64,000 nt of DNA from Escherichia coli. Lineage in GTDB: Bacteria > Pseudomonadota > Gammaproteobacteria > Enterobacterales > Enterobacteriaceae. The notes under the pieces were generated by a model. That model did no database searches, was not told the origin of the DNA, and saw only the letters and a program-made list of their open reading frames with translations. Numbering within the stretch: the stretch's first letter is position 1; each line of letters opens with the position of its first letter. Below are positions 3,594 to 50,916 of this stretch, piece by piece. The DNA lies in the NCBI RefSeq assembly GCF_030013595.1, contig NZ_CP122768.1. One strand, 5' to 3'. A program made the position numbers and the translations under genes.

Positions 3594-3983
3594 ATGAAAA
3601 AGATTATCGAAACGCAACGTGCCCCAGGCGCAATCGGCCCTTATGTTCAGGGCGTTGATTTAGGCAGCATGGTCTTCACCTCCGGGCAAATTCCGGTTTG
3701 CCCACAGACCGGTGAGATCCCGGCTGATGTGCAAGATCAGGCGCGTTTAAGTCTCGAAAACGTCAAAGCGATCGTGGTTGCTGCCGGGCTGAGCGTGGGC
3801 GATATCATCAAGATGACCGTGTTCATCACCGATCTGAATGATTTTGCCACCATCAACGAAGTCTATAAGCAGTTCTTCGATGAGCATCAGGCGACCTACC
3901 CGACCCGGAGCTGTGTACAGGTCGCGCGTTTGCCGAAAGATGTGAAGCTGGAAATTGAAGCCATCGCAGTACGTAGTGCGTAA
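3594..3983 (+). CDS. tdcF: RidA-family enamine/imine deaminase TdcF
   Basis: 129-aa YjgF/RidA-like sequence MKKIIETQRAPGAIGPYVQG. The ATG at 3594 is preceded by GGAGG. Confidence 0.9.
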   Translation: MKKIIETQRAPGAIGPYVQGVDLGSMVFTSGQIPVCPQTGEIPADVQDQARLSLENVKAIVVAAGLSVGDIIKMTVFITDLNDFATINEVYKQFFDEHQATYPTRSCVQVARLPKDVKLEIEAIAVRSA

Positions 3984-4054
3984 AGCCTCGTGAGCGGGAC
4001 GGTCGCAAGGTCGTTCCGCTCCACTTCACTGAACGGCAATCCGAGGGTATGGAT

Positions 4055-5419
4055 ATGATTAGTGCATTCGATATTTTCAAAATTGGGATTGGTCCCTCCA
4101 GTTCGCATACCGTGGGGCCAATGAATGCCGGAAAAAGTTTTATTGATCGGCTGGAAAGTAGCGGCTTATTAACCGCGACGAGCCATATTGTGGTCGATCT
4201 GTACGGGTCGTTGTCACTGACGGGCAAAGGCCATGCCACGGATGTCGCCATTATCATGGGACTGGCAGGAAACAGTCCGCAGGATGTTGTCATTGATGAG
4301 ATCCCTGCATTTATAGAGTTAGTAACGCGCAGCGGGCGGCTGCCAGTGGCATCTGGTGCGCATATTGTTGATTTTCCTGTAGCAAAGAACATTATCTTCC
4401 ATCCCGAAATGTTGCCTCGCCATGAGAACGGAATGCGGATCACTGCCTGGAAGGGACAGGAAGCGCTATTAAGTAAAACCTATTACTCTGTCGGCGGCGG
4501 GTTTATTGTCGAAGAAGAACACTTCGGCCTGTCGCACGATGTCGAAACGTCCGTACCTTACGATTTCCACTCAGCAGGTGAACTGCTGAAAATGTGTGAT
4601 TACAACGGCCTGTCTATATCTGGTCTGATGATGCACAACGAGCTGGCGCTGCGCAGCAAAGCGGAAATTGACGCCGGTTTTGCCCGTATCTGGCAAGTGA
4701 TGCATGACGGTATTGAACGCGGGATGAACACTGAAGGCGTGCTGCCTGGTCCGCTCAATGTGCCGCGTCGTGCCGTAGCGCTGCGTCGTCAGCTGGTTTC
4801 CAGCGATAACATCTCTAACGATCCGATGAATGTCATCGACTGGATCAATATGTACGCGCTGGCGGTTAGTGAAGAAAACGCAGCTGGCGGGCGCGTGGTG
4901 ACGGCACCGACTAACGGTGCGTGCGGCATTATTCCGGCAGTGCTGGCTTATTACGATAAGTTCCGTCGTCCGGTAAACGAGCGGTCAATTGCCCGCTATT
5001 TTCTGGCAGCGGGGGCTATTGGCGCGCTGTATAAAATGAACGCCTCCATCTCTGGCGCGGAAGTCGGCTGTCAGGGGGAGATTGGCGTGGCCTGTTCAAT
5101 GGCGGCGGCAGGGTTAACTGAACTCCTGGGCGGCAGTCCGGCGCAGGTGTGCAATGCGGCGGAAATCGCGATGGAGCATAACCTTGGGCTGACCTGCGAT
5201 CCGGTTGCCGGACAGGTACAAATCCCGTGCATTGAACGTAATGCCATTAATGCCGTGAAAGCAGTAAATGCCGCACGGATGGCGATGCGCCGCACCTCGG
5301 CACCGCGTGTTTCACTCGATAAAGTGATCGAGACGATGTATGAAACCGGCAAAGATATGAACGATAAATACCGCGAAACATCACGCGGAGGACTGGCCAT
5401 TAAAGTGGTCTGCGGCTGA
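4055..5419 (+). CDS. tdcG: L-serine dehydratase TdcG (Fe-S type)
   Basis: 454 aa starting [23 protein letters not shown], the serine dehydratase alpha/beta fusion family. Confidence 0.9.
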
Positions 5420-9892: not shown

Positions 9893-9923
<31 letters not shown>

Positions 9924-23948: not shown

Positions 23949-25193
23949 TTAATTACGCAGGGCGCTATTTGCCAGACGATCGTCTTCTGCCTGGCAAGCT
24001 GCCGCAGTGAATAGCACGTCAGTTGAAGAGTTCAGCGCGGTTTCGCAAGAGTCCTGCAATACGCCGATGATAAAGCCGACGGCAACCACCTGCATGGCGA
24101 TATCGTTCGAAATACCGAACATATTACAGGCCAGTGGGATCAGCAGCAGAGACCCCCCCGCCACGCCGGATGCGCCACAGGCACACAGAGAAGCCACTAC
24201 GCTCAACAGCAGCGCTGTGGGCAGATCGACCGGAATACCCAGCGTATTAACCGCAGCCAGCGTCAACACGGTAATGGTGATTGCTGCGCCCGCCATATTG
24301 ATGGTGGCTCCCAGCGGAATAGAAACGGAATAGGTATCGCGATCCAGATTCAGCTTTTCACACAGCGCCATATTCACCGGAATGTTCGCTGCAGAGCTGC
24401 GGGTGAAGAAGGCATACACACCGCTTTCACGCAGGCACAGCAGCACCAGCGGGAACGGGTTACGACGAATTTTCCACCACACCAGCAATGGGTTAACCAC
24501 CAGCGCCACCAGTAACATACAGCCAACCAGCACGACCAGCAGTTGCGCGTAGCCCCACAGTGTGGAGAAACCGGTGGTTGCCAGGGTAGAAGAAACCAGA
24601 CCAAAAATACCGATCGGTGCGAAGCGAATGACCAGTTTCACCATAAAGGTGACGGCATTCGACATATCGTTGATCAGGTTTTTGGTGGTCTCGTTACCGT
24701 GACGCAGTGCGAAACCGAGGCCAATTGCCCACACCAGGATCCCGATGTAGTTACCTTTCAGCAGCGCGTCGATGGGGTTGGAAACCATGCTCATTACCAG
24801 CCCGCGCATCACTTCTACAATGCCTGACGGCGGCGAAATATCACCCGCGCTACTGGATAAGTGCAGGGTAGAAGGGAAGGCAAAGCTGAAGACTACTGCG
24901 GCCAGAGCAGCAGAGAAGGTGCCCAGCAGATAGAGGAACAAAATAGGGCGGATATTGGTTTTCTGCCCGTGCTGGTGGTTAGCAATAGATGCCATTACCA
25001 GCATCAACACCAGGATGGGGGCAACGGCTTTCAGTGCGCCGACGAACAAAGTACCTAACAGACCAACAGCTTCCGCCGCGGGTTTTGAGATCCATGCCAG
25101 AAGAATCCCCAGAACAAGGCCGACCAGGATTTGTTTTACCAGGCTGCCATGAGCCAGACGCCGGAATAGCCCCGGTGAACGTTGCGTAGTCAT
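23949..25193 (-). CDS. sstT: Serine/threonine:Na+ symporter SstT (DAACS family)
   Basis: 414-aa [29 protein letters not shown]. Confidence 0.9.
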
Positions 25194-25808
25194 TTTTCGA
25201 TCCTTTCATTGTGTTGTCGCACATCCCTGGTGCGTTCTGTCGACGCATCTTTCAGGATGTAACAAAGTGTTTGCAAGGTCGAGTATAAGGAAAGTTACAG
25301 CTTCGGGAAGCGAAAAATGCTGGATTTTAAAGAGAGGTCATATTTTGCAACTTAATGGTTACATTTATTTGACATAAACAGAGGGAAGGACTGGCTACTA
25401 AGGCTGATTAGATAACATATGGGCAAAACTATTTGGAATATGAGAACGGTTGCGCTCTTTTAATGTGCTATGCCATATAAAGTCACTGGCGCAGGGAGCG
25501 CGCAGGGGGCGGCCAATCGCCGCCGCCCCCTGCACCCCCAGGCTCTGGCGAACAAAATCGCCGCTGCGCGGTTCCCTCAGCTTATCCCTTGCGGCTACCG
25601 GGTCGGGCGCAAGGGAACGTCCCTGTAAGATGCCCCCTCGCCGCGCATCCATGCGCGTCGCCCCGGCCTCCAGGGAACGCTTCGGCGATTTTGACGCCAC
25701 CAACACCCGTGCGGTCTTTTTGTAAAGAGCTATAAGCCGATTACATAATTAATAGCTCACCTTTGTCTGGAATGAGTTATCTCTAGTAATGGCTTAATAT
25801 ACAGCGAA

Positions 25809-26774
25809 TCATTCTCCCCGCTGCTTATCATGCCGATAATTCACCCAAGCGTTGATAATAAACGTCATCACCAGAATGCCAAACACCACGCCCAGCGAAA
25901 CGGCGATCGGAATATGGTAGAAGTCAACAATCAGCATCTTGATACCGATAAACACCAGAATCACCGCCAGACCATATTTGAGCATCGAGAAACGTTCTGC
26001 TACGCCCGCCAGCAGGAAATACATCGCACGCAGGCCGAGGATCGCAAACAGGTTTGAGGTCAGCACAATGAACGGGTCAGTGGTAACAGCGAAGATAGCT
26101 GGAATGCTATCCACGGCGAAAATCACGTCGCTCAATTCCACCAGAATCAGCACCAGCATCAGCGGTGTGGCATACAGCAAGCCATTCTTGCGCACAAAGA
26201 AATGCTCGTTGTCGATGGTGTCGGTCATACGCAAATGACCGCGCAACCAGCGCACCAGCGGCTTGTCGCCAATGCCTGATTCATCTTCATGGGCCAGCGC
26301 CATCTTCACGCCGGTAAACAGCAGGAAGGCACCGAAGATATACAGGATCCAGTCGAACTGCGAAATCAGCCAGCTGCCAGTGAAGATCATGATGGTACGC
26401 AGAACAATCGCCCCGAGCACGCCATACACCAGCACGCGGCGTTGTAATGCCGCCGGAACAGAGAAATAGCTGAACAACATCAGCCAGACAAAGACGTTAT
26501 CGACCGCCAGCGATTTCTCAATCAGATAACCCGTGAGAAAGGCCAGTGCCTGTGGATCGGCAACGGCGCGACCTTCGGTTTGCACCAGATACCACCAGAA
26601 AGCGGCGTTAAACAGTAACGACAGCGTCACCCAGACCAGCGACCAGGCCGCAGCCTGTTTCATGGTCATGGCATGTGCCCCACGACGCCCCTGCAACAAC
26701 AGGTCGATAGCCAGCATAATGGCGACAACAACAGCGAATCCGCCCCATAGCAACGGCGTGCCGACAGTATTCAT
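25809..26774 (-). CDS. alx: TerC-family putative Mn2+/redox membrane protein Alx
   Basis: 321-aa ORF of the TerC family, preceded by a long structured leader. Confidence 0.9.
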
Positions 26775-50342: not shown

Positions 50343-50916
50343 CTGATATATAAAAAGAAAAAGGCTGACGATTTCTCGTCAGCCTTTGCTATGTCTGGCC
50401 CTGCTGTCTCTTAATTGGTTGTGTAATTAATTGAAATTAAACAGGTAAATGCAATTTATTTTTTATCGATATGCCTTTTTGTATGCCTATTGGGAAAAAC
50501 ACGCTTTCTTCAACAGGGAATAAAAGCCGCTTTTATGGTGTTTTGAAACGGGTTTTAAAATGGCGCTCGTGGTGCTCTCGGGCACTCAATGGCGCTCTGT
50601 GATGTGGCTGGTGGTATGTGGCCGCCATGCATAATGGGGCTGATTTTGTTCATGGCCCGGCAGCGGGTGAGCATTTTTTACCATATTCAGGGTAAAAATG
50701 GGCGAAAAAGTTCATTTCTGGCATGGCCTGAAATGCCACGCAGCCCGCGCCGCGTGTGCTCTTGCCGGGGAAAACGGCGCGGAATAATGACCGCCACCCC
50801 ACCTTATGGCGGGCAGTCCCACGAAATCCCGGTTATTTCCGTTTATTCCCGGATTAATCCCGCCTTCTCCCGCATTCTCCCGGCTGTTCCCGGAATTAAT
50901 CGCCGTGGGGTGGTGG

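Follow-up and report, generated by a model that had tools for sequence, protein, structure and literature searches.

A TRIP1d copy of the TRIP1/RRS repeat family, with a conserved G-rich-strand fold, between alx and sstT in Escherichia coli

The genes alx (25809–26774) and sstT (23949–25193) both lie on the minus strand of the 64,000-nt stretch of Escherichia coli DNA analysed here, which we refer to as the window, and the 615-bp spacer downstream of alx and upstream of sstT holds a GC-rich block. GC content climbs from 34–40% in the flanks (0.396 over 25194–25448 and 0.344 over 25713–25808) to 65–71% within it. A sequence-only reading of the window had placed a GC-rich, hairpin-dense, non-coding block at 25470–25725 (GC 0.66), and composition, stems and folding statistics all agree with this description; alignment of copies sets the boundaries at 25449–25712 (264 bp, GC 0.659, with the right end extending to about 25715), compared with which the interval first drawn stops slightly short on the left and overshoots slightly on the right. 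All stems quoted in that reading were found in place: arms CAGGGGGCGGC at 25503 and GCCGCCGCCCCCTG at 25519, arms CCCTTGCG at 25586 and CGCAAGGG at 25608, and arms CGCGCAT at 25642 and ATGCGCG at 25651. The first of these is better written GCAGGGGGCGGC/GCCGCCCCCTGC, a perfect pairing of 12 nt with 8 nt between the arms. Open reading frames of 102 aa (minus strand) and 91 aa (plus strand) run across the block, neither with a Pfam match, and the 1-nt indels that separate TRIP1 copies break their frames; we therefore regard these Arg/Pro/Ala-rich frames as artefacts, as had been suspected, and reject a protein-coding block. PGAP (NCBI) calls one such frame a "hypothetical protein" in one genome.

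The folding of the block was compared with dinucleotide-preserving shuffles, 200 per test. Using RNA parameters we obtained z = −4.64 for the minus strand and −4.00 for the plus strand, and using DNA parameters −5.94 and −5.03, respectively, with none of the 200 shuffles as stable in any test. The G-rich strand, which is the minus strand and thus the strand of alx and sstT, is more stable than the C-rich strand, both as RNA (about −145 vs −128 kcal/mol) and as DNA (fold energies of −80 vs −73). For the G-strand RNA of the window copy, the minimum free energy was −143.1 kcal/mol and the ensemble energy −147.0 kcal/mol.

BLAST searches for copy number identified a dispersed family, found in 5,425 of 5,426 complete E. 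coli genomes at a median of 3–4 places per genome and at up to 10, confirming that the block is a repeat. This family is known as TRIP1; Rudd (1999, Res Microbiol 150:653) was the first to list it, and Li et al. (2024, Genes 15:236; PMC10888264) surveyed it in 6,725 genomes and described five locus-specific types. Their TRIP1d, 264 bp long, is separated by 96 bp from the alx stop and by 255 bp from the sstT start, and was found in 1,565 of the 6,725 genomes, always in one orientation; the published GC content of TRIP1 is 62–65% and the ensemble energy of TRIP1d about −145 kcal/mol (PMC10888264). The interval 25449–25712 reproduces this geometry exactly (96 bp, 255 bp and 264 bp), and its GC content of 65.9% and G-strand fold energy agree with the TRIP1 description. 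The window copy is 87.1–87.3% identical to the K-12 copies at lysO–aqpZ and yohP–dusC over 267–287 nt, and across these (TRIP1a and TRIP1c) and other copies identity is 87–91% over ~267 nt; the K-12 copies, which we located independently, fall at the published coordinates of TRIP1a, TRIP1c and TRIP1b. The block is thus a TRIP1d copy of the already published TRIP1 family, with sequence, locus, offsets, length, GC content and "double-Y" fold energy all the same and no material difference between the two. Earlier it had been proposed that the block might belong to an unclassified repeat family, and this does not hold, as BLAST and the literature both lead to the TRIP1/RRS family; nor is it a universally conserved single-copy sequence, being multi-copy and missing from this locus in K-12.

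A function for this family has been described by Pham, Wood, Dunbar, Cox and Goodman (2024, NAR 52:6392; PMC11194060), who identified their 222-bp "Replication Risk Sequences" (RRS) near lysO and dusC as Rudd's TRIP1, and the coordinates of their RRS deletions fall within TRIP1a and TRIP1c. One RRS strand carries the G-quadruplex-forming sequence GGGGGTGCAGGGGGCGGCGG, and at both K-12 loci it is this strand that templates lagging-strand synthesis (PMC11194060). In vitro, Pol I, II and IV are stopped by the G4 strand and rolling-circle synthesis by Pol III falls by half, and single-stranded gaps of ~2 kb bound by RecA and SSB arise on the lagging strand wherever the RRS is placed that way round; an inverted RRS gives no RecA/SSB peak and still rescues viability (PMC11194060). 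Cells tolerate the loss of both K-12 RRS only when a 200-kb amplification is present, supercoiling is affected genome-wide, and the two sequences flank the Ter macrodomain at a distance of about 650 kb from dif (PMC11194060). Using the K-12 RRS–lysO coordinates (168–389 bp upstream of lysO) and the TRIP1a/window alignment, we placed the approximate equivalent of the 222-bp core at 25484–25705 on the minus strand (69.8% GC), and Klebsiella homology covers the same ~220 bp. The RRS G4 sequence is present as an exact copy of the 20-mer at 25520–25539 on the minus strand, where it occurs once in the window.

We then considered whether the fold, and not the G4 sequence alone, is shared among copies. 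In an alignment of 21 distinct Escherichia and Klebsiella copies read on the G-rich strand, the consensus fold comprises 76 pairs in 12 helices, with 99.1% of cells paired. Changes on both sides were found at 14 of the 76 pairs; shuffled controls gave 8.4 ± 1.3 (0 of 500 reached 14) and slid controls 0–3. The G-rich-strand fold is therefore conserved across Escherichia and Klebsiella copies, which is a new result of the present analysis, and from these compensatory changes it follows that the whole hairpin architecture, and not the G-runs alone, is maintained by selection. Covariation reads the same for single-stranded DNA as for RNA. Among helices with a Watson–Crick pair as the commonest, wobble pairs fit the G strand in 12 columns vs 7 for the C strand, a weak excess.

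The individual parts of the fold can be followed along the window copy. The perfect 12-bp GC hairpin GCAGGGGGCGGC/GCCGCCCCCTGC (25502–25533, 8-nt loop, inverted repeat I3) overlaps the G-runs of the G4 motif and corresponds to helix 11, which has four compensatory pairs; two of its pairs switch from C-G to A-U in E. whittamii and strain THO-015, and a G-C to A-U change in K. aerogenes breaks a run of five Gs. A long outer helix between CAAAATCGCCGC and GCGGCGATTTTG (25553–25693; inverted repeat I1, 16 nt and 88% complementary), equivalent to helix 2 with 13 pairs and 99.6% pairing, encloses two smaller hairpins. Hairpin 1 (25639–25660, minus strand, GCGCAUGGAUGCGC, inverted repeat I6) presents the loop AUGGAU on the G-rich strand and is helix 7, with three compensatory pairs; its stem reads CCCACA/UGUGGG, CCCGCA/UGCGGG or CGCGCA/UGCGCG around a loop that is invariant except in one Shigella copy. 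Hairpin 2 occupies 25585–25638 (minus strand, inverted repeat I7) and has ACAGGGACGU at its apex on the G-rich strand; the CCCTTGCG/CGCAAGGG stem is part of this region, which corresponds to helices 8–9 and has an apical closing pair that changes from A-U to G-C in Klebsiella. The terminal hairpin (25452–25502, minus strand, helix 12) runs from GCGCUCCC to (A)GAGCGC; its 3′ arm reads AAAGGAGCGC in most E. coli copies, where GGAGCGC pairs with the upstream GCGCUCC. Helix 12 has one compensatory pair (UA to CG), and the same pair is a C-A mismatch in the window copy. The G-rich strand of most E. coli copies ends in AAAGGAGCGCAAC, followed 1–6 nt on by ATG, which resembles a ribosome-binding site and start codon, and the window copy reads AAAAGAGCGC at 25452–25468 (minus strand), without the ATG. 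A leader with a small ORF was considered and rejected, given ORFs of 3–27 aa that are not conserved and Klebsiella copies without the ATG.

A copy at least 95% identical to that of the window occurs in ~1,590–1,600 of ~5,434 complete E. coli records (~29%), and K-12 MG1655 has no TRIP1d at alx–sstT, so occupancy of the locus is not universal. The K-12 spacer is 398 bp long (2047–2444 of the extracted K-12 locus, K-12 coordinate ~3.24 Mb), and similarity between the two alleles is confined to sequence beyond ~25379–25787 of the window; the K-12 allele is a replacement of ~410 bp, neither a simple insertion nor a clean empty site. A different GC-rich palindromic insert of ~110 bp lies in the K-12 spacer (CCCTCTCCC...GGGAGAGGG and GGGTGAGGG...CCCTCACCC). 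Elsewhere in K-12, copies are found at lysO–aqpZ (TRIP1a, 87%), yohP–dusC (TRIP1c, 87%) and putP–efeU (TRIP1b, with an internal deletion); strain ST865 has a full-length TRIP1 at putP–efeU (2478–2743 of the extracted locus), which implies that the deletion in K-12 is secondary. TRIP1 lies in opposite orientations between strains at lysO–aqpZ (2480–2745 vs 1516–1782 of the extracted loci) and at yohP–dusC (2478–2744 vs 1123–1390), as also reported by Li et al. (PMC10888264), and the immediately adjacent flanks differ between oppositely oriented copies as well. Copies in Shigella flexneri, including that at alx–sstT, carry many indels and broken hairpins (3827–4081, 19–277 and 3686–3945 of the extracted contigs) and appear to be decaying.

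A contig scan with an 18-mer returned mostly chance matches in GC-rich genomes; homologues among the matches listed came from E. coli, S. flexneri, E. ruysiae, E. whittamii, E. albertii and Escherichia sp. E1V33. One assembly labelled "Bacillus sp." contained a 583-bp contig at 0.7x coverage that is 95% identical to E. coli TRIP1 and is almost certainly contamination. In the plasmid collection PLSDB, copies ~80% identical over ~220 bp were found in Klebsiella pneumoniae, K. aerogenes and K. variicola, and one Klebsiella chromosome (K. pneumoniae strain 176) has the family at 13 places, so that it has multiplied further in Klebsiella than in E. coli. Strain 176 also contains two copies 437 bp apart in a 97%-identical tandem unit (1337–2165 of the extracted locus), with REP-like sequences between them. 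The PLSDB "plasmids" concerned (CP125156.1, NZ_CP134663.1, LR134122.1 and others) are 0.1–5.4 Mb in length and carry chromosomal genes (pcaCD, selD, sitCD); these records are chromosomes or chromosome fragments. The phage search gave no match to the element, and with the "plasmid" matches being chromosomal pieces, the suggestion that the block is a remnant of a foreign insertion finds no backing and a phage or plasmid origin was rejected. The element showed neither terminal inverted repeats nor target duplications, and, given in addition the ~410-bp replacement in K-12, a mobile element of MITE type was rejected too.

One may postulate on this basis that TRIP1d is a selfish or decaying repeat that has no function here, having been dispersed by recombination or some other mobilisation and tolerated in a spacer, and that its sole effect is ectopic recombination. 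Its absence from K-12 and from ~70% of genomes, the varying orientation and flanks at a given locus, the internally deleted K-12 copy and the decayed Shigella copies, the 13 places and tandem duplication in one Klebsiella genome, and the 156 TRIP1-mediated rearrangements that have been published (PMC10888264) would all fit such a scenario. We nevertheless consider it improbable: compensatory changes uphold 12 helices across two genera, which neutral decay would not do, and the K-12 copies are conditionally essential (PMC11194060). Moreover, with no terminal inverted repeats or target duplications seen and no transposase named in published descriptions, the element has no known means of selfish spread.

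TRIP1d resembles REP/BIME sequences in being GC-rich, extragenic, palindromic, repeated and, as they often are, situated just past a stop codon. REP units are 35–40 nt long and present in hundreds of copies. The REP consensus (GCCKGATGCGRCG...) has no match inside 25449–25712, consistent with the sequence-only view that the block is not a REP/BIME or ERIC, and the only REP-like patterns in the window are two minus-strand matches, at 9911 and 30706. Sub-threshold matches to the REP-derived Rfam family naRNA4 were observed beside TRIP1 copies at K-12 and ST865 loci (4730–4767, 2862–2898 and 3616–3652 of the extracted loci).

Since read-through from alx would have the G-rich strand as its non-template strand, the element might instead work as RNA, such that a read-through 3′-UTR of alx would expose two GGA hairpin loops for binding of CsrA (in the manner of TwoAYGGAY or of the CsrA-sequestering RNAs of CsrB type) or would fold so as to shield the 3′ end of the mRNA. 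Terminator prediction gave none between alx and the repeat, the G-strand RNA is the more stable of the two, and the loops are conserved while their stems co-vary. A resemblance to the CsrA SELEX consensus RUACARGGAUGU is seen in both loops, AUGGAU and ACAGGGAU/CGU, and the K-12 loop form UACAGGGAUGU equals the core of that consensus. In each of the three copies tested, the Rfam family TwoAYGGAY matches the G-rich strand, at 29.9–30.9 bits (29.9 for the window copy and 30.9 and 30.6 for the K-12 copies; E = 0.048 in a 2.3-kb search), and all of these scores are below its gathering threshold of 43 bits. To our knowledge, TwoAYGGAY itself has no proven function. Like TRIP1d, TwoAYGGAY (RF01731, clan CL00106; Weinberg et al. 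2010) has two adjacent hairpins within a long outer helix, and its first AYGGAY loop aligns to the AUGGAU of hairpin 1; binding of CsrA has been proposed for it by Gardner and Eldai. The second loop of TRIP1d differs, reading AGGGAC or AGGGAU (AGGGAY) with a G where AYGGAY requires Y. Other Rfam families gave matches at chance level only.

Several further observations weigh against a role as RNA, which we regard as unlikely. No promoter was found for the element, the wobble excess on the G strand is weak, and the strand that would be read through varies by copy, being G-rich at alx and dusC and C-rich at aqpZ and putP. In the CsrA CLIP-seq data of Potts et al. (2017, Supplementary Data 1), which cover K-12 in one growth condition and would reveal binding only if TRIP1 is expressed there, none of the peaks includes any TRIP1 sequence, whichever strand is read, and both dusC and ybjE are marked "No"; we retain CsrA binding only as a low-probability alternative. 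Of the earlier proposal that the block is a small structured RNA, then, the conserved structure stands, but copies do not share a consistent transcription context, and the function described in the literature operates at the level of DNA.

Taken as a whole, the observations are best explained if TRIP1d, a member of the enterobacterial TRIP1/RRS family, is a DNA structural element and not a gene, a reading that we consider likely. Its starting points are the family identity, the exact G4 motif and the conserved single-strand fold. When the duplex is opened, the G-rich (minus) strand would snap into a very stable multi-hairpin fold with a segment capable of forming a G-quadruplex, a fold of the type that in K-12 copies blocks DNA polymerases and leaves lagging-strand gaps of up to 2 kb associated with SSB and RecA. 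The most likely mode of action is thus the published one, in which a single-strand fold would impede polymerases and affect topology.

How this would play out at alx–sstT depends on orientation. The GC skew of the window (+0.009) is too noisy to assign a replichore, and we relied on synteny with NZ_CP082355.1, which starts at dnaA on the plus strand, assuming the same gene order in the genome of the window. A 100%-identical block lies there at 657,584–657,884 on the plus strand, ~0.66 Mb from dnaA, and because the fork moves in the plus direction from dnaA, the minus (G4) strand should be the leading-strand template. TRIP1d shares with the K-12 RRS the 222-bp core family, an identical G4 20-mer, GC-richness and extreme secondary structure; it differs in placing the G4 strand, by synteny, on the leading- instead of the lagging-strand template, in lying ~0.66 Mb from dnaA instead of about 650 kb from dif, and in its presence in ~29% of genomes. 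We infer that its orientation is opposite to that of both K-12 RRS and corresponds to the one that left no gaps in the experiments of Pham et al. In this reverse orientation TRIP1d would be expected to cause transient pausing of forks or polymerases and local topological effects, not lagging-strand gaps. It may in addition serve as a patch of homology for TRIP1–TRIP1 recombination, as has been published for the family.

This interpretation must be tempered in several respects. As TRIP1d is absent from ~70% of E. coli genomes, it cannot be essential. The occurrence of TRIP1a and TRIP1c in either orientation in natural strains weakens the case for a strictly orientation-dependent role. Furthermore, the "G4" 20-mer has only two runs of at least three Gs and is overlapped by a co-varying 12-bp hairpin, and the blocking structure may therefore be a hairpin and not a quadruplex. 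A more far-reaching scenario, to which we give very little credence, would combine these elements: TRIP1d would be a natural reverse-oriented RRS under selection for the whole G-strand multi-hairpin fold, not for a G-quadruplex, and alx read-through would turn that strand into a TwoAYGGAY-like 3′-UTR RNA module whose two GGA loops bind CsrA or another RNA-binding protein. Were this the case, a replication or topology element would be coupled to post-transcriptional control.

Both full copies of K-12 are conditionally essential, and no genomic sequences had been reported before them to programme the formation of post-replication gaps; the Escherichia–Klebsiella covariation indicates that selection in this family reaches beyond the G-runs to the hairpins as a whole. 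The alx–sstT copy would represent a natural example of an RRS with its G-rich strand on the leading-strand template, in ~29% of E. coli, and could be used to test whether an RRS depends on its orientation and position. Pham et al. (PMC11194060) name the pilE G4 element of Neisseria gonorrhoeae as the sole bacterial parallel; it likewise forms a G4 and acts in replication or recombination, but is unrelated to TRIP1d in sequence and in context (antigenic variation). Within the 64-kb window, the only canonical G-quadruplex motif (four runs of at least three Gs) lies at 50859–50891 on the minus strand, GGGAACAGCCGGGAGAATGCGGGAGAAGGCGGG.
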